Notes under the pieces: generated by a model
Seen by the model: the letters and a program-made list of their open reading frames with translations, nothing else
What the model was told of the DNA's origin: nothing
Database searches by the model: none
Translations under genes and position numbers: made by a program
Shown here: one piece after another, positions 6,200 to 52,800 of the stretch
Layout: each line of letters starts with the position of its first letter
How positions within the stretch are numbered: position 1 is the stretch's first letter
Origin: Squalus acanthias
Lineage: Eukaryota
Assembly: GCA_030390025.1 (NCBI GenBank)
Contig: CM059432.1
Location: forward strand, 63,676,001 to 63,740,000
Direction: 5' to 3'
DNA: 64,000 bases

Positions 6200-6870
6200 T
6201 AGCTACAATTATGAATCAGAATTTGGGAACTTCTTCCTTGCCGTGTTATTTGAGGGAGGAATAATGGGATGAAGGGAGGAGGGGTGCAGATTAGATTGCA
6301 CCAGAAACTCTGTGTACAGATTCAGGCACATCTTACCTAGGAATATCCAAAGGCAGTGACAGAGTTGTGCTGTCAATTGGGATCTGATGTGCAGACAACC
6401 TCCACCACAGGAAGGGCACTGCCAGTAGCTGTCAGGGTTACCACAGCCCTGAACTTTTCTTCCTCTAGCTCATTCCACAGAGGACATCAGCAATATTTAT
6501 AAATCTGCAGTACACAGGTCACTGATGTATTGTTCACCAGGGCAAACACCCTCATCACTTTCACCTTGGAACACCAACAGCAGAATGAGGGCACTGCAAT
6601 TTTTGCACATTGTACAATTCCCCAGGGTCTCATTTATGTGGCCACCTGAGACCCTGCATACAATGGTATGACCTTCATGAGCCACAAGGGCTTCCACTTC
6701 ATCCATATGCATTGGCCAGTGACTGGAAACACCGGATCAGTCAGATGAATGCACACTTCCAGGCAGCAATCATGATACCTTTATTTTAAGACAAGGGTGA
6801 TTTGAAGGAGAAGGCAGATTTCAAGTATGGCTGCTGGGAAATTAAAGCTACCCTCTTCAAATGCTGGATC
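6200..6870 (+). pseudogene. Old Harbinger DDE transposase remnant
   Basis: Reads KAVTELCCQLGSDVQTTSTTGRALPVAVRVTTALNF and later GSNHDTFILRQ, WLLG; homologous to 22896-24047; stops and frameshifts. Confidence 0.7.
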
Positions 6871-7817: not shown

Positions 7818-7973
7818 TGAGTGTCCGAAGTGGGAAGGTTTCCATTACCCAGCATCAACATCCACATACAAAAGCAAAATACTGTGGATGCTGGAAATCT
7901 GAAACAAAAACAGAAAATGCTGAAAATACTCAGCAGGTCAGGCAGCATTTGTGGACAGAGAAACAAAGTTAAT

Positions 7974-9106
7974 GGTCCGAAACTTACGGTCCTGATGACG
8001 GCGAACTGGCAGCGTTCGCTGTCATTTCGCCTTTGAAACTGACCGCAACTCCAGGATTTAGCGCATGCGCAGCCTAACGCGGAAATCCCGAAGTTGTGGT
8101 CTATCATTCACTGCTCCGACACCGGCTGTGCTGTGAACATCACACCCCAGAACCCCCCAGAGCAGGAAATCAGTGAAATTACTGATCTGACAACAATTTA
8201 CCAAACAAATATTGCTGTTAAAAAACCCATAAAATGTTAGATCCATTCAAATGAGGTGAAACTGGGTTTTTAACGACGATCTGAGTAATAACCACTGATA
8301 AACAACCGTTCTGGCCCTGAAAAACTAATATTATATTGGTGGAATGTTAAATTTCACCATTAGTTAAAAATTATTAGATTTTAAAATGAATAAAATAACA
8401 TTTCTTTTTTAAAGTTTGTTCATGATATTTCAGCTTCTACCTTAACCCAATGTGTATTTCCCAATCTTTATTTCGCTATCTGTAAATTTTTTAAAAAGCG
8501 ATTGATTAGCAACATAGGAACAGGAGTAGGTCATTTAACCCCTCGAGTCTGTTCCGCCATTCAATGAGATCATGGCTGATCTGCGACCTACCTCCATATA
8601 CCCGCCTTTGGTCCATATCCCTTAATACCTTTGGTTAACATAAAGCTATCAATCTCAGATTTAAAATTAACAATTGATCTAGCATCAATTGCCATTTGCG
8701 GAAGAGAGTTCCAAACTTCTACCACCCTTCGTGTGTAGAAGTGTTTCCTAATTTCACTCCTGAAAGGTCTGGCTCTAATTTTTAGAGAATGCCCCCTAGA
8801 CTCCCCAACCAGCAGAAATAGTTTCTCTCCATCTACCCTATCTGTTCCCCTTAATATCTTGATTATTAGTGCTTTCTATTTCCTGGTTCGCTGTCTGAAA
8901 ATTCTGCAATGTGATTGTCTGCTGAGACAGCTTGTTGACGTCACAGTAGCTCGCACTCGGGCTTTCCACTAAACTACTTTGATATTAAACTGTACGTCGG
9001 AAAAGCCGAACTTCTCGCCACAGAGATCATGAAATCTTTGTGGGAAGCTTACTTCGGGGTCAACTGCAAACGCCTTTGCTTCGCCGCTGACCGCAAATTA
9101 CGGGCC
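7974..9106. mobile_element. Non-autonomous PIF/Harbinger-type transposon
   Basis: Imperfect TIRs GGTCCGAAACTTACGGTC / GGCCCGTAATTTGCGGTC (14/18); 3-bp TSD AAT/AAC; related to 38331-39098 and 53411-54125. Confidence 0.7.
8511..8860 (-). mobile_element. CR1 LINE 3' fragment nested in 7974-9106
   Basis: Reverse complement of the CR1 3' end (GATCAGCCATGATCTCATTGAATGGCGGA...CTACTCCTGTTCCTATGTT), as at 47140-47228. Confidence 0.8.
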
Positions 9107-9464
9107 AACGTTTCAGGTCGATGACCTGTCGTTAGAACTGGAAAATGTTAGAGATGTAACAGGTTTTAAGCAAGTACAGAGGCAGGGAAAGGCGGGAGGG
9201 GAGGAAAGAACAAAAGGGAAGGTCTGTGATAGAATGGAAGGCAGGAGAGATTAAATGACAAAAGGGATGATGGTGCAAGGCAAAAGGAGATGGTAATGGG
9301 ACAAGTAAAGATACAAAAGATGGGTCTAGAGGAGGTTTAAATGGGAATAGCAGAATCGTGCTTGCGTCTATTTGCAACACAAGTGGGTGAGACCAGATTT
9401 CTGATTGGTTCCCTTGGAGGACACAACATACCCAACAATTTGTCTGGAATGTGTAATTTGATCA

Positions 9465-10299: not shown

Positions 10300-12600
10300 A
10301 AATAAAAGAAATTGGACATCGGCAAAAACCTGCCTGTGTAACGGTGGGCTCGGGTTTACGGCAGTTGAAAATGGCCACAGTGCTACCGGGTAAAAATTTG
10401 CGCTGGGGGCTAATGATTTTTACCCCAGCGCTAACTTACAGTGTAACGCACTCCTGGTGGCATTAGTGGAAGAATCCGACCTGAAGTTAGAGTCCACGAG
10501 TGGCATTCCAGCTTCTGGGAGCAAGGTTGTGGAGTTCGCAAGGAATTGTGGGCAATTAAAAGGGAAAAGAATTAAAGGGGCAATGCATTCAGCACTACTA
10601 AAAATTAAAATTAAGTGAAAAATGCAGTTTTCAGTGCTTACTGTCTTTCAAAAAGAAAAAAAATTAACATTAAAAAGAAGTTCAAAATGGGAGTCTCAGC
10701 ACTTAAAGCTGACTTGCCTTCCGAACCTCAAAAAATGGGAAAAATGCTTCAGCACTAACACAAATGGCTCAGCAAGTCAGGGAAGGGGCTCTCAGGGTCT
10801 CGCATGCTTTGTGCAGGGGATAAACACTGCAAGAGACTACCCACAGGGGCCAGGAGGCCCTCCAGAAAGAACGATGTGGGACTACATCACTGAGGCCGTC
10901 ACTGCCAGCAGTGTCACCCCCACCACCTGGCTCCAGTGCCCAAAGAAGCTTCATGACCTCAGACCACTGGTCAAGGTCAGTGAATGCATCTTCAAAAGCC
11001 GTCTCCTACCAACTGCATCACTAGCCTCACACACTGCTCAATGCACGACTCCCCCCCCGACTGCCCCCGCCATCAATCACCAACCAACACGAGGCACACC
11101 TCTCATTCCTAGCTTCACCTCACCCCCTTGTAGGAGACGGTGCTGGCCATTCTTGGCAGGGGCATGGTTGAGCCCTAGGCCAGTGGTGGGGCTGAAAGGA
11201 TAAAAGATGCTGGTATCCTCATATGTTTTCTTCCTTCACGCATGCACCTCTTGCTTTCCTGCCCTCCCTCACCACAACTCCACCCTTGTGCTTTCCTCAT
11301 TTCACACACCCAAAAAATGCAGCCTGCCCAGCCAGTGGTTGACCAAAAAGAGGGAGAGAAGAGTGAAGAAGGAGGAGGAGGAAGAGGGAGAGGAGAGTGG
11401 AGGAGAAGGAAGAGGAGGAGAGTGGTGGAGGAGGAGGAGGAGGAAGAGGAGCAGCAGAAGAAGAAGAATCGATTTGACACTCCCAGCCACCAGCTCCTCA
11501 AGGTCCACCAGCAAGGAAATGTACAGTGACCTCACTGAAAGTCAGCAGCCTTCCACCAGTCATGATGCAGCCACTGGGGTAGCACTGTGTGACATCAGTA
11601 GGATAGGCAAAGGCACACACAAGACAGTCACTAAGGGAATGCATACGGGTGATGAGTTGATTTCTTGATGTCATATTGGATGGATACATGTATATAGTTG
11701 GGTTGGAAAATTTGCATTGTGGTGGCTTTTATTTCAGCATTGTGGCCAAGAGGACACTGTGATGGTCAGTAACAGAGGGAAGGTAAGGTGCGGGACTAAT
11801 GATGAAAAGGGAATTGGGGTTGTGGTCACTGGAACCTCGGGCAGATGATTCCAGCTCAGATATCCCGGCAAGAAAGGGGCTGTCTGGGTTGTACCCTTCC
11901 TTCTGCTTCCTCCTCTTCGGCTTCCTCCTCTTTGGTTTTTTCCTCTTCTGTTTTTTTCCTATTCTGTGACTTCCTCTTTCCTCTTCGAGTGGATGTTGTA
12001 AATCTTGAAATAAAAGCACAAAATTCTGGAAATACTCAGCAGGTCAAGCAACCTCTCGACCTGAGATGTGAACACTGTTTCTCTCTCCACGGATGTTGCC
12101 TGACCTCCTGAGTATTTGCAGCATTTTCTGTCTTTTCAGAGGCCTTCCTTTACTATCCGAGGCTTTGCAAGCATCCAGCAGCACACCCTATACACTTAAA
12201 AAACTTTTAACATTTAATGCAGCAAGCCACGACTTCAGTAAAATAAAAAAAAAACAGTCCAAAAGCTTAAATGCAAACTTACCTGAAAGATGTGTGTGTC
12301 CCTTTATGAGGTGTTAACAGTGCCTCTGTCAGTTTGCTTGCACGCTGGGTTTACCTGGTATTCTTAGGACCCAGCGCTGAACTCAGCGCTTGGGTCAAAG
12401 TTCGCCATGGTGACGTTAAGTTGTTGTTGCATGCTGACTGACGTCACCACAACGCCATTTTTCTTTGCAAGGTGATACTACTTAACAGCAGCGCTACCGG
12501 GCTCTCGAAAATGGAGGTGACCGCGGGATCCACCACCAACCACCGCTTTCTCAACATTACACCGCACTAACAGGCGGCGATAAGGTAGGGAATTTCTCCT
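10300..12600 (+). mobile_element. Non-autonomous Harbinger derivative (decayed Myb-gene exons, short transposase remnant, captured Penelope hairpin)
   Basis: Colinear with 48095-52740 apart from the nested insert; Myb-like MWDYITEAVTASSVTPTTWLQCPKKLHDL at about 10873-10960; termini degraded. Confidence 0.75.
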
Positions 12601-16415: not shown

Positions 16416-17483
16416 GGGGTGAAAAATGGAAACTGGTAATGGGGACTCGGGGAGAGATGGGGAATTAGGGGATGGGAGGTTGTGGGAGAAAAGGGGCCTA
16501 GTGGTTGGGGGATTGGGGCTCAAGCAAGGGGAGGAACTGGGTTTGGGGTGGGCGTGGGAACCAGAATTAGCAACGTGGTGAGTGGGAGCGGCACTGAGAG
16601 GAGCAGCCAGTAAAGAGGTGAGTGAAACCCAGAGACCTTACTGTGGATAAATAATGAAAGGTTATTTCCACTGGTGGGCGAATGGGGAACTAGGAAATGG
16701 AAAACAAGGGTTCTCACTGGAAGAAACAAGAGGGAAAGGAGGAGGAAAGTTCTTGAACTGAGGGCTATTAGATCATGGCCTACTTCACCACATGTGGCTA
16801 TTTGAAGTAGAGACTAAAACTTTGCTTCAAAGGGAATGGGACATATATTTGAAAAGGAGGAATATAAAAAGATCGTCATGCTGTTGGAATGGGATTCCTC
16901 CTGTGCTGAAATTTCTATAATTCTACGAAAACTTTCCTTTTTGAGTCTGAGCTCAGGAAGTGGTTTAGAAATTTTGGCTCTGAGCTGAGTTTAGGACCAT
17001 GTGCCCTGTGTGAAGTGCCCCAAACACTGAGCCCGCTGCCCTTTGTGCGGTCTCTCGGTTTGGTTCAGGTCAGTCTGTGCCACTCGGTTTTTACGTGTGA
17101 AGTCCAAGTGCAGATCAGCTCTGACTGAGCCTCCCAGAGCAGAATTGTCACCTTCAAACGGAACCAGAATCCAAGGAGATAGGGAGAGATCGGGCCTGTT
17201 AAAAGTGGTTAGCCTGAACGCACCTCAGGGTGAGTATCAGCGGGTTACAGGATTACTTCTAGTTACAGGTAGGATATTGTGGCATTACACTTATTACTAC
17301 CAGTTACATATAGACTATCAGTGAGTTATTGTATTACTGTTGGTTATGATGGGAATCTGAGTATTACCAGTATTATTATTAGTTACCAGCGCAATTTCAG
17401 TGAGTTACCTTTAGTTACTGGTGGAATCAAAGTTCTTTCCACCTCTTGTTTCCCCTCTATGAATCGTTCACCCACCTTCAGAT

Positions 17484-18231
17484 TCCCCACCCTCGGTTTC
17501 CCCTCCCCCCCACCCTCGGTTTCCTCTCCTCCCCACCCTCGGTTTCCCCTCCTCCCACCTTCGGTTTCCCCTCCTCCCACCCTCGGTTTCCCCTCCTCCC
17601 CACCCTCGCTTTCCCCTCCCCCCCACCCTCGGTTTCCTCTCCTCCCCACCCTCGGTTTCCCCTCCTCCCACCCTCGGTTTCCCCTCCTCCCCACCCTCGG
17701 TTTCCCCTCCTCCCCACCCTCGGTTTCCCCTCCCCCCACCCTCGGTTTCCCCTCCTCCCCACCCTCGGTTTCCTCTCCTCCCCACCCTCGCTTTCCCCTC
17801 CTCCCCACCCTCGGTTTCCCCTCCTCCCCACCCTCGGTTTCCCCTCCTCCCCACCCTCGGTTTCCCCTCCTCCCCACCCTCGGTTTCCTCTCCTCCCCAC
17901 CCTCGCTTTCCCCTCCTCCCACCTTCGGTTTCCCCTCCTCCCACCCTCGGTTTCCCCTCCTCCCACCCTCGGTTTCCCCTCCCCACCACCCTCGGTTTCC
18001 TCTCCTCCCCACCCTCGGTTTCCTCTCCTCCTCACCCTCGGTTTCCCCTCCTCCCCACCCTCGGTTTCCCCTCCTCCCACCCTCGGTTTCCCCTCCCCCC
18101 CACCCTCGGTTTCCTCTCCTCCCCACCCTCGGTTTCCCCTGCTCCCCACCCTCGGTTTCCCCTCTTCCCCACCCTCGGTTTCCCCTCCCCCCCACCCTCG
18201 GTTTCCCCTCCCCCCCACCCTCGGTTTCCCC
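17484..18231. repeat. 22-24-bp C-rich minisatellite, about 33 copies
   Basis: Unit CCCCACCCTCGGTTTCCCCTCCT with small variants; explains the overlapping low-complexity ORFs in several frames. Confidence 0.95.
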
Positions 18232-18439
18232 TGTCGTCAGAATGTCACGTGATCAAACGTCCAGGAATGTCTCCAACCCGAGTTGGTAACTCTAATCGAC
18301 ATAGATATAAATCATGGATGGTGGGGTCAAGAGAATAGGGGCAATTTCCAGGATGAACAGGGCTGTTGCAGCCGGGGCTAAGGCAGACAGGAAGCTGTCC
18401 AGCCCATCTACAGAATGAGGTCTGGGAGATTTTAACTAC

Positions 18440-21845: not shown

Positions 21846-22895
21846 AAAGACAGTGCAGGACGTTCTGATTGTCTGACAGTTTATAGAGTTCAGACCCGTG
21901 GAACAGACAACATAAAACCCAGACAATGTGTGAAACTTCCTTTACCTAAAAATCAGCAAGAGGTTACAAGTAATTCCCAGAATACAAACTGCACTCAATC
22001 CATGTCCTTATTACAAGCACCTAAAACCATTGACTTTAAGCTCAGGTGATTATAAGCAAAACCACATCTATGCTATCACCAGATGAGAGGTCAATTTAAC
22101 GATGACTAGACGTATGACTTTAACTGGCAACTGACCAGGTCACCATCGACTATAGCCCCGAATGTCAGTGTCCAGTAACACTTATACCCAAAAACTTGGC
22201 AACTTGCCCACAGCATTCATGTCCCAAACTGTGTGGATAATGTTGTTTTCCTCTCTCTCTCTCTCTCTTCCTATCTGTTTTGACGATTAGTTAACCAAGG
22301 CCAGACATTCAAGGATTGGAGAGAATCATTGTTTTTCACATCTGCAGGGTTGTTGACTCATGGTTCTCAGAATTTTCAAGATCATGGGGGAAAAATTCAG
22401 TTGGTTGCGCCTCCCGTTAGCGCCTTAAGAGGGCGCTAATGGGGCGCAAAGCAGCTAGCGCCCGGGTGCAGCGATGTTTGCGCCGCTCGCGAACTTAACT
22501 AGACATTTTGCGGCGGCGCTAAACTTTATCGCCGCGATCTCCTGCGCGTGCAGATTGTGACGTCATACGAGAGTGCAACGCCCTTGTGGCGCCCCGGAGC
22601 AGAATTTCAGTGGCGCCCCCATCCTTACCGCCTGGCGCATCCAACGACCAGAAGAGTGGAACGCTAACAATCGCTGTGGGGCTGGGGGGAGCGCTATTTA
22701 AAGGGGGCCTCTTCCTGTCTTTCTCTGTGGTTGACATTTTTGCACCACTCGTTCTGAAAGAGAGAGAGAGATTCGGAGAGAGAGAAAGAGAGACTTCTGC
22801 ATTGAGTCAACGCTGTGTGAGGTAGTTTTGGCTACTCATCCTAACTTCGCTGGTACTTTGGTTTCTGGCCTTCATAACTTTGCTTGCTAAGAGAT

Positions 22896-24047
22896 ATGGG
22901 GGCTGCACTGATGGGGGGCGTCATCCTGCGCCAGCTGAATCGGAGGAGACAGAGACGCAGAGAGAGAGTGGCAATGATGGCCAGACGGAGGAGGGCCAAC
23001 AGGCGTCTGTACAGGAGAGCTTACCCTCCCAGGGTATATCGTGAACAGCTCTCCTACATTCATATGTCTGATGAGCAGTGTCTGCGAAGGCTGCGCTTCA
23101 GCAAGGAGGTGGTCACTGAGCTCTGCCACCTGCTGCAGCCAGATCTGCAGCCTCAACTGAGGTCCAGGACGTCTCTGTCGGTGGCAGTGAAGGTCACAGT
23201 GGCTCTGAACTTTTATGCTACTGGCTCATTTCAATCTGCTGTTGGGGACATCGCCAATATCTCCCAGTTCGCGGTGCATTGCTGCATCAGGAAGGTCACA
23301 AATGCCCTCTTTAAAAGGAAACGAGAGTTCATCTCTTTCCCCATGACCCCAGACAAGCAGCAAGAACGCGCTCTGGGCTTTACGAGGATAGAGGGCTTCC
23401 CCATGGTGCAGGGCGCCATTGACTGCATGCATGTGGCTTTGCGTGCTCCGCATGAGAATGCCGAGGGTTTCCGGAACAGAAAGGGGTTCCATTCCTTGAA
23501 TGTTCAGTTGGTCTGTGACCACAGACAGCTGATACTCGCTGTCAATGCCCACTATCCTGGCAGCTGCCACGATGCTTTCATCCTGCGCCAGACTACTGTG
23601 GCAGAACTTTTCGAGGCACCGCATCAGCCAGTTGGTTGGCTTCTCGGGGACAAGGGGTATCCACTGAGCACCTGGCTGATGACACCGCTCCGTACGCCCA
23701 ACACCCCTGCTGAGCTGCGGTACAACGAGAGCCATCAAGCTACCAGGAACATCGTGGAGCACACAATCGGCGTGCTCAAGCAACGGTTCCGCTGTCTCGA
23801 CCATTCTGGAGGAGCCCTGCAGTACTCGCCTGAGCGAGTTTCCAACATCGTAGTTGTGTGCTGCATGCTGCATAACATGGCAATCCTCAGGACCCAGCCA
23901 ATGCCACCAGGCCTTGGAGCACCACCAGAGGAGGAGGAGGAAGAGGAGGAGGAGGATGATCAGCAGCAGCACCAAGACGTGAGGGCGGCCCACAATGGTG
24001 AAACTGCAAGGGCCGTCCGTCAGCGGCTGATAGCAAGCCGCTTCTAG
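22896..24047 (+). CDS. Harbinger (HARBI1-like, DDE_Tnp_4-type) transposase, 383 aa, uninterrupted
   Basis: ATG at 22896; HTH region LRRLRFSKEVVTELC; catalytic motifs GAIDCMH, NRKGFHSLNVQLVCD, PGSCHDAFIL, LLGDKGYP, RNIVEHTIGVLKQRF; inside TIRs, so not the domesticated HARBI1 gene. Confidence 0.92.
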   Translation: MGAALMGGVILRQLNRRRQRRRERVAMMARRRRANRRLYRRAYPPRVYREQLSYIHMSDEQCLRRLRFSKEVVTELCHLLQPDLQPQLRSRTSLSVAVKVTVALNFYATGSFQSAVGDIANISQFAVHCCIRKVTNALFKRKREFISFPMTPDKQQERALGFTRIEGFPMVQGAIDCMHVALRAPHENAEGFRNRKGFHSLNVQLVCDHRQLILAVNAHYPGSCHDAFILRQTTVAELFEAPHQPVGWLLGDKGYPLSTWLMTPLRTPNTPAELRYNESHQATRNIVEHTIGVLKQRFRCLDHSGGALQYSPERVSNIVVVCCMLHNMAILRTQPMPPGLGAPPEEEEEEEEEDDQQQHQDVRAAHNGETARAVRQRLIASRF

Positions 24048-24358
24048 GCCCCTGCTGTGGAAATGGCTTCTGCCATTGAGAACAGCATGAATGAACCCAA
24101 CACGCAACCCCTAAGCCGGCCAAGGCACCAATGATTCCAAACACCAAACATGTATATTTTGAGTACCAAAACTTATTTATTTTACAAACTCTGTGTGTGT
24201 CATTTCTTCATGACAAACTCATACAAATAAACACAAAAAAACAGTCATTACCATAACTGGTTCTCACAACCTGGAGATCATGTGCAAAACACTCAACAAA
24301 AGTTTGACCACGAACCTCGGCCTTTGATAAAAAAATGACCAGCATTTTGTCACACCTC

Positions 24359-25327
24359 CTACATCGAGGGTGAACTCCTTCCCGTGCGCCCTTCCCCCCT
24401 GCTTACCCTACTGCTCCTCCGCAATGGGACCTCAGTGGCTGCAGCAAGGCTGGTGGAAGGCTGCTGACTGTCAGGCCCTGACAATGCAGATGCCCTTGAG
24501 GGACGGCCTCGACCAGTTCTGGGCCTGGAGGGCCCGGCTGCAGACTGCACCAACTCTGCATGGGCGGCAGCAGTCTGTCCTATAGGCGGTGGCAACTGCA
24601 GTGGAGAAGTGACAGTGGTGGCAGCAGGAATGCTGTCATCTTGAGCGAGGACAGCAACTCCCTGCTCGACCGGCACACTGGCACTCCCACGGGGCAGCAC
24701 CTCAGCATCCGGAGCAATCTGCTGGAGCACAGATTGCTGGCCTGCTGCGGCGCGGTGAGAGCCCCGGGGAAATGTGAACGAACCAGCGAGGATGGCAGCA
24801 GACAGTGCTCGCGTGACCTCAATCTAAGTCTGCATGAGAGCAGTCTGAGATTGAATTGCAGCACTGAGCTTCAGTGTCGCATCCGCCTGCGCTGCAGCGA
24901 AGTGCTCCACACTCCTTGCCAGTGCTTCAATGCATTCGGGCACCCTACCCACTGCAGCCATGAGCTCAGTGTGCATGCCCACCGCCTGGGTGTTCATTTC
25001 CGCGATCAGCCACTCCTCCTCTGCGTCCAGTGCAGCAGGACTCGCTGGCATACTCTCCCTCCGGGGAGAAGGCCCCCGAGCTTCCCTACCCCCATCGCGT
25101 TGCTGCAGCCCGCTGGGTCCTGGAGCTTCACCCTCATCAGACCCTTCCCCCCTGCTCCCCTCCAGGGAAGGCATGTTCCCAGTGTCGGCATGGGCTTCCT
25201 CGGGAGAGGGTGGCACTGATGCTCCGGCTTCCTCTTCCTCCTCGGCTGCAGCTTCACTCCCATTGGCAGCTACAGGGCCCGTCTCCTCAGCTGGTGAATC
25301 ACCATCTCGTTCTCTCACCCTCTCCAT
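24359..25327 (-). pseudogene. Harbinger accessory gene lacking its Myb/SANT domain, one in-frame TAG
   Basis: ORFs 24824-25327 and 24359-24730 share a frame separated only by TAG at 24824-24826; C-terminus (AVLAQDDSI...AAGPSRPR...QQPSTS...LRRS) matches exon 3 of the gene at 33527-34618. Confidence 0.8.
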
Positions 25328-25734
25328 CCTTGGCTGGAAAATGGATTCACAGGTCTCTCCAGGCCGAGATTCAAGGCTGCAATGAGCAGGGTGTGGCTGG
25401 GGAGCAAGATCGCCCCCCCCCTTTAAGAACTGGCCGGCGCCAATGTGTCTGTGTTCCCTCGCTAACTGGCAGCACCTGCGCTGCGCTCGCGCTCTGAGTT
25501 AGCGCCTCACTCCTCGGCCTTTGCGCCTTAAGACAGGTGTGCAGCGCCTGATTTAGCGCTCCAATCACCTCCCGGGGCGTTAAAAGTGAAGTTTCCAGTC
25601 AGTGGCGATAAGTAGCGCCAGGCGCTAATTTTTGCGCCCGGACAATATTTGCGCCCCAAATGGGGCGCAACTGAATTTTTCCCCCCATATCTTTTGAAGG
25701 AAAAGTACCAACACATCACTTATTTTACAAATGT

Positions 25735-34785: not shown

Positions 34786-36995
34786 TTCACTGGAATCAGA
34801 GTCTGATGAGGCATTCACGGACAGCCCGTGCCGAAGGGAGATTTGCTGCCTGCCTCCTTTCTTCCTCCTCATCCTCCTCTTGCTCATGCTCTTTCTGAGG
34901 TGGACCCACAAACTTGTAGGGGGTGGTGGTGGTAGGGGTCAGCCTTACCCCTGACTCAGTGAGCGGTTCGAATCGCTCCCACGCCCCAGGTTCAGACCTT
35001 GGACTTATTTAGGGGTTGTGAATAAAGATGCAGTAGACAACAGGTTCCAATGAAAGAATTTTGACTTTTATTAAAAAAAGAAAAAAGGTAACAAACTTAA
35101 AACACACTTCACACTTAAACAGGTTGGGGAACACATGGTACAGGCGAGGGAGAATGACAATATACAAAACCCTTATCCCTCCCAAGAAACCCACTATCTA
35201 GCTAGGTTTCAGTTTCAGGAGATCAGGGATAATGCTCACCAAACAGGGGTTTTAACAGTGCGAAATCCAGCCAGGTAAGTTGATGGTGGTCTGGTCGTCG
35301 AGTGTCTTCCTGGAACGTGCTGCTCCTGGAACAGGGCTGAGCGGGAGAGTCCGGAGAGAGAGAGCCTCTTGGGGAATTCCTTGGGGTATTATATATGTTC
35401 AGCTCCTTTGTTCTTTTCTTTGCTCCCAGAACCCCTTACTAAAAATGGTTTTGTGCTGAAGTGATTTGGTTTTCAGTTGAGGCCTGTTCATTCCATTGTC
35501 TTGGTTCCTTGCAGGCTTGTTAAGTTTTGATGGGTTTAACTTGGTGTAAAAATGTTCTGTACTCTCTTCTTACTGAACTGTTGTAACTGCTTGATGGGCT
35601 TTCAATTATGCTAAACCAAATCAAATCCTGGTCATTGAAAGACCTCGTTACCAGTAACGACTTTTTACTGAGTGTCAAATGGCTTGCGTCCTGTCGATCT
35701 GTTGTTTTATTGGAGTTTGCATTGTCCTCATGTTTTGGGTTTCTTGCTGGGCCTAGCATTCCTATCTTTATGCATCTCTTTAATGGGTTCTGTGTTTTGG
35801 GTGGGGCTGCCTTCTCCCAGGGCCTATTGTCCAAATGTTAATGTTTGCTGGGGCTTGAATTCCAGCCTTTTAAAATTGAGGTTCCTTATGTTAGGCCCAA
35901 ATACATTTTTATCACTCTGGGGTAGTTCCAAAGTCCTTTTTTTTCTCCTTAGATTTTTGGGGATCTGCAAATTTTGGAAACTTTACAATCTCTGCTGGCA
36001 AGGGCTGCGCCCTCATGATGGCCAAGTTGTGAAACATGCAGTAGACCACCACAAAATGGGACACCCACTCCACCGAGTACTGGAGGGCTCCTCCTGAGCG
36101 GTCAAGGCAGCGGAACCATTGCTTCAGCAGCCCGATGTTCCTGGCGGCAACATGGTTCTCATTATATGAGTGCTGGGCAGGAGTGGTGGGGTTGTGGAGG
36201 GGAGTCATCAGCCAGGTGCAAAGCGGATAGCCCTTGTCTTCAAGCAGCCACCCTCGGGTTTGACGTGTTGGCTGGGAGATTGCTGGCACATCGGACTAAC
36301 ACAGGATGAAGGCATCATGGCTGCTGCCAGGCTAGTGGGCATTGACCATCAGAAAGTGCTGGGCATGGTCGCAGAATAACTTCACATTAAGTGAGAGGTA
36401 GCCTTTGCGGTTACGGAAGATCTCAGAATTGTTATGCGGTGCCTGTAAAACCACATGTGTGCAGTCGTTGGCGCCCTGCAACATGGGGAAGCCTGCTATC
36501 CTGGCAAAGCCACATGCATGTTCCTCCTGCTTCTCTCTGCTCAGAAAAGAAAACATAGTCCCTTCTCCTGGTGTAGAGAGACTCTGTGACCTCCCGGATG
36601 CAGCGATCGACAGTGAACTGGAAAATGTTAACTATGTCTCCTGCTGCAGACTGGAAGGATCCACTGGCGAAGAATTTGAGGACCACGGTGACCTTGAGGG
36701 CCACTGGGAGAGCCATGGTCACCCTGCTTTGAGGCTGCAGGTCTGGTTGCAGGAGCTGGCAGAGTTCTGTGACCACCTCCTTGCTGAAGCGGAGCCTCCT
36801 AATACACTGCTCCTCATTTAAGTCGATATAAGAGAAGTGCTCTCGGAAGACCCTAGGTGGGTAAGGCCTCCTGTCGTGAGCTCTCCTGGCCCTCCTCCTC
36901 CTCCCTCTGCGTGCATCTTCTCTTCTCCTTCACAGCCTCTGCTTCCTCTCTCGAAGATACTCAAGCACGAGAGGCACTCCAAGTAAAGAACCCAT
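34786..36995 (-). pseudogene. Harbinger transposase pseudogene, interrupted by a solo LTR
   Basis: RPYPPRVFREHFSY, VVTELCQLLQPDLQPQ, GFPMLQGANDCTHV, RNRKGYLSLNVK, WLLEDKGYP, LKQWFRCLDRSGGALQYS; stops and frameshifts. Confidence 0.88.
34915..35987 (-). mobile_element. Solo LTR (1073 bp)
   Basis: TGTAG...TTACA termini; near-TSD AACT/ATCT; splits the transposase C-terminus; minus-strand AATAAA near 35070 and TATA-like tract near 35390. Confidence 0.65.
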
Positions 36996-47152: not shown

Positions 47153-49161
47153 TCTCATTGAATGGCGGAGCAGGCTCGAAGGGCCGAATGGCCTACTACT
47201 ACTCCTGCTCCTATTTCTTATGTTCTTATGAAATGCATTGTCAAAAAGGTTAAAAGAAAGCACTATAACCCCTTCACAGGACTCTACAAAACAGAGAGGA
47301 GGAAAAAGACAAGAATACAGAAAAGTGATGTATTATTTTAAAGAGATAGCTAACGGGTTTCATAGCCTCTGAACAAATTTAAAAGTGAAAGTTAGAAAGA
47401 GGTGAAAGTGGTGGACAAAATGCAAAGGTGACTCAGGGAGGCTGTGGAAGGTATTAGAAACCAAAAGGTGAGTTAAACAGCTCAAAAATCGAATAGAATG
47501 CTGCAAAATCTGATGGTCTTACTAATTTTATTCTTTCTAATGCCTTTATTTATCATTAATGTCTTCACCTCTTGCCAACTTGAGAAAAAGTCGGTTTACA
47601 TCCTATAAAACCCCATTAGCTGTCTCTCTGTATTAGATTTCACATTACAGTAATCTTGTCCTTTATCTGTTGTTCTGTCTCTCTCTCTATTTTGTTCAGT
47701 GTCAAACAGGTCGTGCCACTTTCCCTTATCAGCTTTCATGAAGGCTAATAATGCTGAAACATTAACTTGTCTTTTCTCATTTCAAATGCTGCTGGATCTG
47801 CTGTCTATTCTCAGCAAGTTCTCTTTATTATATATTAGCATTTAGTTGATGACTTCAGTTAGTTTACTGCCAAGGATAAGGATTGTTTGATACCAATACA
47901 TTACATAACTCAGCGACAGAAAATATTGTAGTGAAATGTATTGTATATTGTAGATCATGAAATATATACAGGAGTAACACGTTTGTAAATAAGAGTTGAC
48001 TTGGCTGTAATGCTTCTAAGTATCATGCTCCATATCACTAACGCTACTTTGTATTTCACAGACCAATGTATGCTATGGTTTGTTATGGCATATAGGGCTA
48101 AAAATTCGAGGCCGCCACAAAAGTTGACAGTGTCACCATGGCCTCGGGATGATAGCTGCTGAAAATGAGCGAAGTGCTGCCAGAGAAAAATCTGTGCTGA
48201 GGGCGAAAAATTTGTAGCCCAGCGCTAACTTACCATGTAATGCTCTCCTGGTGGCATTAGTGCAGGCATCGGAATCAAAGTTCCCATCCAGAAGCAGCGT
48301 TCCAGCTTCCAACAGCCTCTGGAAGCGAGGCAATAGAGTTTGCTAGGCATTGTGGGAAATTAAAAGGGCAGTGCATTAAAAGGGCCATGCTTTCTGAACT
48401 AATAAAACTAAAAATGAAGTGAAAAAATGCAGTTTCAGCCCTTACTGCTATTTAAAAAAAATTAACATTAAAAAGAAGTCCCAATTGGGAGTTTTCAGCT
48501 CTTAAAGCTGAATTCCCTTCTAAACCTCAAAAAATGGGAAAAGTGCTTCAGCACTAACACAAATGGCTCAGCAAGCCAGGAAAGGGGCACCCAGGGTCTC
48601 GCATGCAGCACTCCAGCTTTGTGCAGGGGATCAACACAGCAAGAGAGGTCCTCTACCCACCAGAAAGAACAATGTAGGACTACATCACCAAGGCCGTCAC
48701 TGCCAGCAGTGTCGCCCCCACCACCTGGCTCCAGTGCCCAAAGCAGCTTCATGACCTCAGACCACTGGTCAAGGTCAGTGAATGCATCTTCAAAAGACGT
48801 CTCCTACCAACTGCACCACTAGCCTCACACACTGCTCAATGCACAACTCCTCCCCCCCAATCATGTGTCGACCAACAATCTGTACCAATCACAAGGCACA
48901 CCTCCCATTTTCGCATTCCTAGCCTCACCTCACCCCCTTGAAGGAGATGATGCAGGGCATTCTTGGCAGGGGCATGGCTGAGCCCTTGGCCCAGGGCTAT
49001 AAGATGCTGGTATCCTCATACGTTATCCTCCTTCTGGCATGCACCTCTTGCTTTCCCACCCTCCCCTCACCACAACTCCACCCTTGTGCCTTCCTCATTT
49101 CACACACCCAAGAAATGTAGCTGGCTGAGCCAATGATTGACCATGAAGAGGGAGAGGAAGT

Positions 49162-49228
49162 GAAGAAGAAGAAGAAGAAGAAGAGAAGAAGAAGAAGAAG
49201 AAGAAGAAGAAGAAGAAGAGAAGAAGAA
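49162..49228. repeat. (GAA)n microsatellite
   Basis: About 20 GAA units with two interruptions, in the Glu-coding tract of the decayed accessory gene. Confidence 0.9.
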
Positions 49229-49877
49229 ACACCATCACTCGATTTCACACTCCCAGCCACCAGTTCCTCAAGGTCGACCAGCAAAGCCATTTGCAGTGTC
49301 CCCTACTGAAAGTCAGCAGCCTTCCACCAGCCATGCTGCAGCCACAGGGGTAGCACTGCTAGACATCAGTAGGATAGGCAAAGGCACACACAAGACAGTC
49401 ACTAAGAGAATGCGTAAGGGTGATGAGTTGATTTCTTGATGCCATATTGGATGGATAGATGTATAAAGTTGGATTGGAAAGTTTGCCTTGTGGTTTTTAT
49501 TTCAGCATTGTGGCCAAGAGGACAATGTGATGGTCAGTAACAGAGGGAAGGTAAGGTGTGGGACAAATGTTGAAAGTGGAATTGGGCTTGTGGTCACTGG
49601 TACCACAGGCGGATGATTCCATCCCGGATATCCTGGCCAAAAAGGGACTGTCTGGGTTGCATCCTTCCATCTGCTTCCTCCTCTTCTGTTTCCTCCTCTT
49701 CTGTTTCCTCCTCTTCTGTTTCTCCTCTTCTGCTTCTTCCTCTTTGGCTTCTTCCTCTTCTGCATCTTCTTCTTCTGCATCTTCCTCTTCCCTCTGCGAG
49801 TGAATGCTGTAAATCTGAAATGACAGCATATGCTGGAAATACTCAACAGGTCAGGCAGCATCGCAACCTGAAACGTG

Positions 49878-52188
49878 GGGCTTGATTTTGCCAGGCCCGA
49901 GGAGGCGGGATTGGAGGCGTGTGAGGTGGTAAAATCGCAAAAAATGGCGGGCAGGATCGATCCCGCCTCCATCCCGCCTCCGAGCAATTTCTCCAAATGC
50001 GTGTTTTCTGATCCCATTTCCATCCCACCTCCAAGAGACAGGATAGGCCCTTAAGGCCCTTAACAACCAGTTAAGTGCCTCTATAATCCCATTTTGAGAG
50101 GCCTTTCTGATTTTACCACTTTTCCCACGTCGTGCACGTCTCCTCTGGAACACGCCAGTGAATCTTGGCGGCCTCACAAGTGGACTGCTTACTAACAGCT
50201 GCAGCCCCACCATTAAAAAGGAGTTTTCAGCAATCATCATTTGCAGGTGGCAGAACTTTGTTGTCTCAGGTCTGGAGGAACTTTTAGCAGGCATACCCAT
50301 TGTTGTGGAAGTTTGGAGCCTGACACCCATCTCCAGTGTGACCTCCTGGGAAACCCCTCTCGCCACCTTGACTGAGCGCTTCCTCAACTGAGGCATATAC
50401 CAGAAGCATGGGAACCATTTATTTCCTTTCCTCCTGGATATCAGATTCGGACGAAGACCAGCCGTGGCAGCAGCAGAACCATGAACAACAGCACCACCAA
50501 CAGCAGCAGCAACAACAGGAGCGCCAAGCTGCTACTCACCCACCTGAAGCTGCACAGGCCAGAAGGCGCCAGCACGCGACCACATTGCTGCCCGGGATGC
50601 AAGGGGCACACTCATCTTGGCCAGATTTGCTTAGCCTGCACAATCAAACACTTTTGCCTCGCACCTTCTTATCAGACCATCGACAATGGCCAAGAACCTG
50701 CGGATTCCTATCACTCTGACCACCATACTGACAATTGCAAGTCGCCCTAAGCCCTCAATGTGGAAGTCCCATTAGCGAAATGACACACGCCACAACTGCA
50801 ACAGTTTGCCATCAGAATTTTTTATGACAATAAGCAACTGATGGCTTTTCAAAATTAAACACAACATTACACCCAAGTGACTACCCTTGTGACTACTTGT
50901 GCATTATCTTCCTCTTACGCGTGTTCCTACGTGGTGCTTCCCCTGTGGCTTCAGCAGATGTGGAGGCCCCTTGCTCACTTTCTTGCTGCTCCTGTCTCGA
51001 CACCTTTGGCGGGCATCCTCTGGGGTTGCGAACCTGTGAGGGCTCGGCAACAGTCTGCTGCTCCTGCGGCTGTGCAGGGGTTGAGACGCCGATCTCAGTT
51101 GGGTGGGGACTCTGGTGGGGCTCTGACCGAGGGCTCTGCAGTGGCATTGTCATGTGAGCGCTTGGAGAGGAGCCCCCACTTCCTTGTTGTATGCCACCAA
51201 CATCCCTCTCATGGGTCAGCCCCACTTCAGAGCTAGCAAGTGGCTGGGCAGCACCTTGCTGCACTTCAGGGGAGCCATGAGGACCTGTTTCTGCACTGGA
51301 AGTTCTACTCCAGAGGACTTGCATGAAGGTCTGGTTTCTATGCTCAGTAGCTGACCATCGCTCCTCAAGAGATGTCAGTCTATTCTGAACAATTACCATG
51401 TTTTCCATATCCTGGCGACTAAGCTCCTCCATGGACGTAGCCATCCTCTCCTCTACCGTAGACATCCTTTCCTCTACGGTAGCCAGCCTTACCATGGAGG
51501 TAGCCATCCTTTCCAAGGAGGTTGCCTTCCTTTCCATGGTGATGCGTTCATGCGCCAATGCCTCCACAAAGGCTCTGCTCATGTTAGTGATGGACTCCTC
51601 CATCACTCCACACTCGCAGCGACCCTGGAGACAAAACCTGCCAGAGACTCCTGCACCTCTTCCTGGAGTTCCAGCATCGCTCTCCTTCTGGATGGACCCG
51701 GAGGCACAGGGTCGACATGCAGCGGAGCCGAGCTGGGAGCGTCCTCTCCACTGTGACGAGGACTCTCTACTGCTGTCCCTGTCTTCACCATCTGCTGATG
51801 CTCACTTGTGAGCTGTGATACACCAGGTGACAACTCTACTCTATGTCCCGAAGGTCCCACCGAGTTGTGAGTGTCTGCGCTGGTGCAGGGTGCGCTTAAT
51901 TCTGCTGACGGAGCGCCCTCAGAGGTTGCAGCATCCTCTGAGGAGTCTGGAAGCTCAGGCTCTTCCTCCTGGACAGTGGGGATGGGGGCTCTCAATGGTC
52001 CTGTGGGGGAGTAAAGGAAAGAGTTGGAGATGTGAGGTAAAGGTTGCATGCACATTGAATTGTGCAGATGATCAATTGCCCAATTAGGGGAAAATCGCAA
52101 TTTTTCAACACTTCACTTAGGAGTCGGGGTCCTGACATGAATCCCACCTGACACGCCCCAGCCCACCCACACTGGCAAAATCAAGCCC
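49878..52188. mobile_element. Internally deleted Harbinger (2311 bp) nested in 48095-52740
   Basis: Perfect 17-bp TIR GGGCTTGATTTTGCCAG; TSD GTG (49875-49877, 52189-52191); probable transposase N/C-terminal remnant at 50408-50635; accessory-gene exon on the minus strand. Confidence 0.9.
50893..52000 (-). pseudogene. Last exon of a Harbinger accessory gene with heptad coiled-coil repeat; frameshift near 51605
   Basis: Acceptor CCCCCACAG|G at 52000; ERITMER-KATSLER-MATSMVR-LATVEER-MSTVEER-MATSMEE; C-terminus STSAEATGEAPRRNTRKRK like the other accessory genes. Confidence 0.7.
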
Positions 52189-52800
52189 GTGAACTCTGTT
52201 TCTCTCTCCATGGATGTTGCCTGACCTGCTGAGTATTTGCAGCATTTTCTGTCATCTCAGAGGCCTTCCTTTACCATCTGAAGCCTTGCAAGCATCCAGC
52301 AGCACTCCCTACACACTTATAAAACCCTTAACATGTATTGCAGCAAGCCACTACTTCAATAAAATTACAAAAAAAACAGTCCAAAAGCTTAAATGCAAAC
52401 TTACCTGAAAGATTTGTGTGTCCCTTTAAGAGGTGCTGACAGCGCCTTTGTCAGTCTGCTGCACGCTAGGTTTATCTGGCGGGCTTAGGACACAGCGCTG
52501 AACTCAACGCAAAGGTTCAAGTTCCCTGAGGTGACGTTAAGTCGGCGTTGCACGCTGACTGACGTCACCTCTCCCTCATTTTACTTTTCAGGGCAATGGA
52601 TGTTATCAGCAGCGCTGCCGGGCCTGGGGAAATGGAGGACGCCACGGGACCCGCCACCAGCTGGCGAAAGATCGACAACCGCCCTCTTATCGCAACTTTT
52701 TGCCGGTAACAGGTGGTGTTAAGCCCCTGAAATTTAGCCCATAGTTTGTATAATGTAAAACAGTTGTGCTAAGGGGGTTTGTGCTACTTGTGGGAGACCA

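Follow-up and report, generated by a model that had tools for sequence, protein, structure and literature searches.

In the spiny dogfish genome, a single triplet near the end of a Penelope-like retroelement is a hotspot for the insertion of Harbinger-type DNA transposons. The hotspot is real and measurable, receives insertions from many Harbinger families and coincides with GTT, the predicted cleavage triplet of a minimal hammerhead ribozyme motif. Its roughly 2,000 or more insertions are very probably due to a palindromic DNA target match and not to the fact that these letters encode a ribozyme. Our verdict is that the hotspot represents a new instance of an already known Harbinger target preference, and it provides a countable case in which the DNA target rule of one transposon makes a hotspot inside the RNA motif of another element. 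The analysis covers a 64-kb window (the whole stretch of DNA presented here), the 3.71 Gb of genome that was searched and an evenly spaced 1.19-Mb sample.

Two Harbinger-type insertions in the window

The initial annotation had described two Harbinger-type insertions in the window that duplicate the same triplet of a Penelope hammerhead (Table 1). At site 1 the insertion is present and the empty-site letters are as claimed, with two departures. The duplication is not a clean GTT but an imperfect AAT/AAC (ATT/GTT on the minus strand), with GTT on one side only, and the hammerhead core at 9135-9129 reads CTAACGA in place of the CTGANGA that a minimal hammerhead requires. The AAT/AAC mismatch likely arose through C>T decay of a CpG formed with the terminal inverted repeat (TIR). 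The left half of element 1 matches loci L111, L200 and L218 at ~72%.

Table 1. Features of the two insertion sites, the coding Harbinger and the full-length Penelope-like reference element
Feature	Position	Strand	Details
Penelope end, 3' part	7882..7970	-	opens with stem I 3' arm (7970-7967)
Left duplication copy	7971..7973	+	AAT (ATT on the Penelope strand)
Non-autonomous Harbinger-type element 1	7974..9106	.	imperfect 18-nt TIRs (4 mismatches)
Nested LINE 3' fragment inside element 1	about 8511-8862		
Right duplication copy	9107..9109	-	AAC; reads GTT, the predicted NUH triplet, on the Penelope strand
Minimal hammerhead motif, 5' part	9110..9139	-	stem I arm 9139-9136, stem II 9127-9115, GAAAC 9114-9110
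Penelope pLTR, upstream part	9140..9357	-	93% to L001, 74-91% to other copies
Unoccupied paralogue of site 2, within another copy of its host	12061..12077	+	triplet GTG 12068-12070, degenerate form GAGAT-GTG-AACAC
Coding Harbinger, same TIR class	22386..25685	+	CAT/CAT duplication; ORF 22878-24047 matches DDE_Tnp_4, E 9.4e-41
Host of site 2, larger TIR element with ATA duplication	48095..52740	.	repeated element
Harbinger-type element 2	49878..52188	.	perfect TIRs of 16 nt; duplication GTG/GTG, 49875-49877 and 52189-52191
L232, full-length Penelope-like element	G000:C1:11178500-11185000		1,004-aa frame, near-identical pLTRs, motif in both direct repeats

At site 2 the GTG/GTG duplication does fall on the three homologous bases, but its host carries no hammerhead. 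A Penelope fragment in inverted orientation (about 49800-49877 and 52192-52252), set inside the larger TIR element, it lacks both the CTGANGA core and stem II's 5' arm, and its triplet, GTG, is not NUH. The empty paralogue that had been placed near 12060-12078 was found, though in degenerate form.

The TIRs of the two elements, which had been called unrelated, both match the pattern GGBSNNDAWHTT, as does the coding Harbinger, and are short and start with GG or GGG, as in PIF/Harbinger (PHIS) elements. The DNA of elements 1 and 2 has no match to the coding Harbinger, and their assignment is by TIR class and duplication. Element 2 contains three ORFs without a Pfam match; its relatives include L250 (96%), which sits in a true hammerhead triplet, and L039 (92%). 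Four unspliced ORFs of 23226-25498, queried for the Myb/SANT domain of a second ORF, gave no Pfam match. Two further decayed Harbinger transposase remnants lie at 35933-36863 and 6350-6857 (59-66% and 33-51%, respectively, to the ORF of the coding Harbinger), and a tandem array of ~35 copies of C-rich 22-23-bp units occupies 17371-18283.

The Penelope hammerhead triplet as a recurrent insertion site

An Rfam scan of the 64-kb window returned no hammerhead and one weak unrelated match; the minimal motifs came from a descriptor search, which yielded 38 matches in the 1.19-Mb sample and 0 in each of 10 shuffles. These matches form two families that differ in stem I, stem II and the palindrome. 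The family form of the motif combines CUGANGA, GAAA and an NUH triplet with two stems (I and II) and a helix III that is palindromic, as in minimal type I hammerheads, and its intact form, searched as exactly 32 letters, occurs in 18,908 copies genome-wide (reversed control, 0). The duplicated triplet corresponds to GUU, which we take to be the NUH triplet by standard hammerhead numbering, as the initial annotation had proposed.

The motif is also present in the pLTRs of L232. This element has the layout of EN+ Penelope-like elements, with one ORF, which codes for RT and, at its C-terminal end, GIY-YIG, between direct pLTRs. Matches of the ORF to RVT_1 (E 2.6e-5) and GIY-YIG (E 4.2e-4) are both below the Pfam cut-off; the match to tandem GIY-YIG (E 4.8e-5) is above it, and the ORF carries a CX2-5CXXC linker, as in Neptune/Nematis. 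The window copy of Penelope is tied to L232 through their common terminus. The second hammerhead-bearing family likewise adjoins a Penelope ORF (L213, 35% over 661 aa). Sequence features thus support the view that the pLTRs of an RT+GIY-YIG element carry a minimal hammerhead motif of the Penelope type. Its cleavage is a prediction, and the predicted minimum-energy fold is an alternative one (-11.7 or -9.6 kcal/mol, versus -6.5 kcal/mol for the hammerhead form).

The available text of PMC4209133 describes metazoan Penelope min-HHRs with which the dogfish motif shares its location in both pLTRs of an RT+GIY-YIG element, the CUGANGA and GAAA core, an extra base before stem II and a 4-bp stem I. 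Also shared are a palindromic 15.2-16.2 pair without loop 3 and the occurrence of thousands of dispersed single copies (PMC4209133 and PMC8557442, available portions). Unlike the motifs described in the former portion, the dogfish motif has a stem II of 5 bp, and a Harbinger hotspot is not among the features reported there. According to the same text, dimers are the proposed active form of min-HHRs, whose cleavage in vitro is weak, and a Schistosoma motif had no activity as a monomer and low activity as a dimer.

A pyrimidine tract ending in CAG, which resembles a 3' splice site, lies directly before stem I in several copies (L001, L006, L010 and L232:1470-1490); in D. virilis Penelope, the end of an intron has been mapped to the 5' end of helix I (PMC4209133, available text). 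In L232, the hammerhead core contains an ATG that shares its frame with the RT ORF. The short Penelope end copies L005, L007 and L008 start at stem I and not at the predicted cut site, and L005 appears to be flanked by a ~10-bp duplication.

Harbinger junctions at the triplet were counted genome-wide from either side. With an anchor 3' of the triplet and a TIR allowed at a distance of 0-30 nt, there were 2,264 matches (reversed-pattern control, 0), while an anchor on the 5' core gave 1,791 junctions (control, 6). These numbers exceed chance and bear out the recurrent landing pad that had been postulated from the window. Among the matches listed (the first 100, on contigs 1-3), the exact triplet gap was found in 65/100 junctions anchored on the 3' side and in 84/100 anchored on the 5' side, with a further 7/100 of the latter positioned 6 nt 3' of it. 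By eye, the 100 listed 3'-anchored matches comprised 69 clear cases, 6 ambiguous ones, 10 at the homologous triplet of core-less fragments in site-2-type hosts, 12 at other offsets and 3 that were not TIRs.

Using a single 15-nt anchor, we found 2,051 filled and 59,199 empty Penelope ends, a filling of 3.3% that pools old and young copies and is higher among the copies that were exposed. The background was derived from 446 matches in the 1.19-Mb sample minus ~159 in shuffles, leaving ~287 true ends, or 1.2e-4 per base per side. Relative to this value, the triplet is filled ~278-fold.

The inserts at 48 distinct junctions represent many TIR types, range from 119 to 5,872 bp and occur in both orientations, which argues that the insertions are independent events. 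At 31 of these junctions the far TIR, the duplication and the remainder of the motif are all visible. The far-end duplications are identical in 20 of the 31, differ by one base in 8 and are more different, or had been selected as variants, in 3; together with GTG/GTG and AAT/AAC in the window, they conform to the 3-bp duplication of PIF/Harbinger (PHIS). In L017 and L130 the two sides differ at two positions (AAC versus ATT), which is beyond a single decay.

Such a pattern might instead stem from a few amplified Penelope-Harbinger composites, or the two insertions in the window from chance, an account that we consider very unlikely. Composites do exist, as one flank recurs 14 times among the 100 listed ends of the commonest family and the site 2 host is itself repeated, but the diversity of inserts at one site, documented by the 48 junctions and the 31 complete ones among them, refutes this explanation. 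Reversed-pattern controls gave 0-6 matches, and the hosts of site 2 and L039 are ~80% alike while their inserts are 92% alike and their duplications differ. The recurrent Harbinger end with identical flanks (L041, L043-L046, L056, L057, L063 and L064), partly at ~4.2-kb spacing, is an amplified composite or a tandem unit.

Target preference at the triplet and at other repeat sites

A target matrix was built from 186 unique ends only (143 taken from the sample, 32 at loci selected by family and 11 at other loci), a few of which lie at the LINE control site described below; hammerhead-like flanks of anchor-selected loci were dropped and identical flanks collapsed. The resulting preference, RAVWY-WWW-RWBTY, is palindromic around a W-rich 3-bp duplication, most commonly AAT, ATT, TAT, ATA, TTT or AAA. 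In the Penelope terminus, the two half-sites are GAAAC and AACTC, the latter being the stem I arm, and GTT between them is the word that is duplicated. The matrix ranks the triplet first of 97 terminus positions (7.2 bits versus 4.2 for the next), and the secondary insertion sites +6 and +8 rank third and second, respectively. Predicted filling is 129-fold for GTT (bootstrap 38-312) and 1,076-fold for the decayed ATT (bootstrap 382-2,076), compared with the 278-fold observed. A fit to the flank consensus, which the initial annotation had named as the simplest cause, is therefore the best explanation.

The transposase complex would read a DNA site of 13-17 bp and make a 3-nt staggered cut around the triplet, whose repair would duplicate it. 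CpG decay of GTT to ATT would improve the site, so that broken copies would be struck more often than intact ones. By eye, ATT is enriched in the direction that the matrix predicts, in 40/100 filled versus 8/100 empty copies among the matches listed, which were read in different stretches of contig 1. The 89 listed 5'-anchored triplet matches read by eye comprise 43 GTT, 27 ATT, 19 other triplets and 0 GTC, and 21 AAY/AAY pairs have ATT on both sides in 7 cases, GTT on both sides in 13 and a mixture in 1. A wider generalization, which we regard as possible but doubtful, is that the hammerhead core with an ACGU helix III spells a Harbinger half-site plus the duplicated word, so that function would lock Penelope ends as landing pads in every vertebrate genome with both elements; CpG-decayed dead copies would be ~8 times better targets and the AGCU type would be immune.

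Two control sites lie outside the triplet of the first family. At a site in LINE RT coding sequence, an exact anchor identified 857 filled and 1,083 empty copies (857/1,940, 44%); this percentage would be a maximum should further empty variants lie behind the same anchor. The predicted filling of this site is 4,001-fold and the observed filling 3,663-fold, in a comparison that is slightly circular. The LINE hotspot (listed loci include L047, L051, L053, L059 and L062) is far stronger than the Penelope one; free of any ribozyme, it is filled ~13 times more often than the Penelope triplet.

In the second hammerhead family, 753 insertions fall within a 31-nt window that includes the triplet. Among the matches listed, 100/100 lie 22 nt 3' of the triplet and 0 at the triplet itself, and this hotspot was confirmed from the far end at 12/15 loci. 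It has a CAA duplication and is used almost only by GGGGKARAAATT-type families (L254-L268; empty form, L071). Filling is ~65-fold over background (753 versus ~97,000 copies, the latter extrapolated from 31 in 1.19 Mb); as its insertions are almost only from one TIR group, the second family is not an age-matched control. The matrix scores the triplet of this family at 0.3-6-fold and its hotspot at 0.6-3.6 bits (5.4 with a family-specific matrix), outside the top 6 matrix sites in the copy scanned. Because the additive matrix under-predicts this hotspot 3- to 10-fold, the target rule is incomplete: either simple additivity does not hold or too few ends were available for training.

This shortfall is one reason to consider an extra local effect on top of the consensus, such as DNA shape, the fold-back arrangement of Penelope ends or chromatin, that raises the use of the triplet. 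Another is that 278-fold, the observed value, falls towards the top of the GTT interval even though unexposed young copies dilute it. We nevertheless judge such an effect unlikely: adding the ~10% of sites that are ATT brings the prediction to ~220-fold, and the LINE site agrees with its prediction without an extra term.

The preferred reading, a palindromic DNA target match, resembles the sequence-specific palindromic targeting reported for zebrafish Harbinger3_DR in the available text of PMC3016246. By that text, the dogfish elements share with Harbinger3_DR a DDE_Tnp_4 transposase, short GG/GGG TIRs, a 3-bp duplication and a palindromic preference that extends past the duplication (A at -4, a pyrimidine at -1). 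Unlike the strict 15-bp target of Harbinger3_DR with its CWG, the RAVWY-WWW-RWBTY preference is loose and its duplications are AT-rich (PMC3016246, same text), and this looseness makes hotspots in several repeats. The dogfish families are nearer to PIF/Harbinger (TWA, AT-rich) than to NuwaI (CWG), as these are described in the accessible part of PMC4482050; the CWG duplication of the NuwaI group and Harbinger3_DR was not the pattern of the 186 ends.

Strongly to weakly filled repeat sites form a series (44%, 3.3%, about 0.8% and about 0) that can serve as a natural assay of how vertebrate Harbingers choose their targets, a code so far poorly described. The Penelope triplet receives ~0.5%, as a lower bound, of about 900,000 Harbinger ends. 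A DNA transposon that inserts repeatedly into a multicopy RNA motif at a single position recalls Dada (PMC8869645, available text), though the likeness is one of outcome alone: Dada is specialised for its RNA genes, whereas Harbingers place that small share of their ends at the triplet and prefer other repeats. A target-specific, Dada-like transposon was rejected, since the triplet was used by 0/100 listed ends of the commonest family (57,875 ends counted) and by 0/175 unselected matrix ends. The open literature that was searched yielded no report of a Harbinger hotspot at a hammerhead triplet, and 'Harbinger' has 0 occurrences in the accessible part of 10.64898/2026.07.22.740005.

Age, decay and ribozyme state of the targets

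In the young Penelope subfamily to which L232 belongs, the triplet is filled in 2 copies and empty in 13,280 (0.015%), suggesting that this subfamily largely post-dates the Harbinger insertion waves. The ratio of filled to empty copies (3.3% overall) can accordingly date Penelope subfamilies relative to Harbinger waves. Escape from insertion through a change of GUU to GUC was considered and is not shown by the counts: GUC copies are 13 filled versus 4,287 empty, but this ratio is confounded by age. Youth explains the scarcity, because the young subfamily is about two thirds GTT by eye and is nonetheless almost empty. Of 12 filled GUC copies examined, 6 have a visible far end and each of these carries AAC on that side, so they mutated after insertion.

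These data also bear on the idea that the ribozyme itself directs insertion, whether self-cleavage, an R-loop or the RNA fold guides Harbingers or selection keeps insertions that silence the ribozyme. The duplicated triplet is indeed the predicted NUH triplet in 84/100 junctions among the matches listed. Against this, the young subfamily, the most intact, has 2 filled versus 13,280 empty copies; the triplet of the second family is unused (0/100 among the matches listed); broken ATT targets are over-represented; core-less fragments, including site 2, are also struck; GTC is absent from the 89 listed triplet matches read by eye; and the non-ribozyme LINE site is filled ~13 times as often. Ribozyme-directed targeting is thus largely refuted, and we hold it to be highly improbable. 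The hotspot reveals neither new ribozyme biology nor RNA-guided targeting.

With the DNA target match as the preferred reading, the consequences for Penelope can be considered. The effect on active elements is likely small, because the targets are mostly old truncated copies. The core and GAAAC are intact today in 9/31 filled copies, 6 of which have GTT on both sides. By separating the core from the 3' arm of stem I, a Harbinger insertion would inactivate an intact motif, and ATT would break the ACGU palindrome required for a dimer. The earlier statement that each hit destroys the ribozyme is not supported, as ATT was present beforehand in 7/21 pairs and 10/100 listed insertions lie in core-less fragments.

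Loss of stem I after insertion is also not certain, because the 5' arm of stem I is predicted to pair again with the commonest TIR, whose first seven bases are complementary to it (filled junctions L025 and L146). Folding of the commonest-TIR junction gave -12.3 kcal/mol off register, with G at position 17, and -9.2 kcal/mol in register with a bulge, versus -6.5 kcal/mol for the native form. A 6-bp stem I is thus predicted by the folding model to re-form after insertion, with the best register leaving a non-cleavable G.
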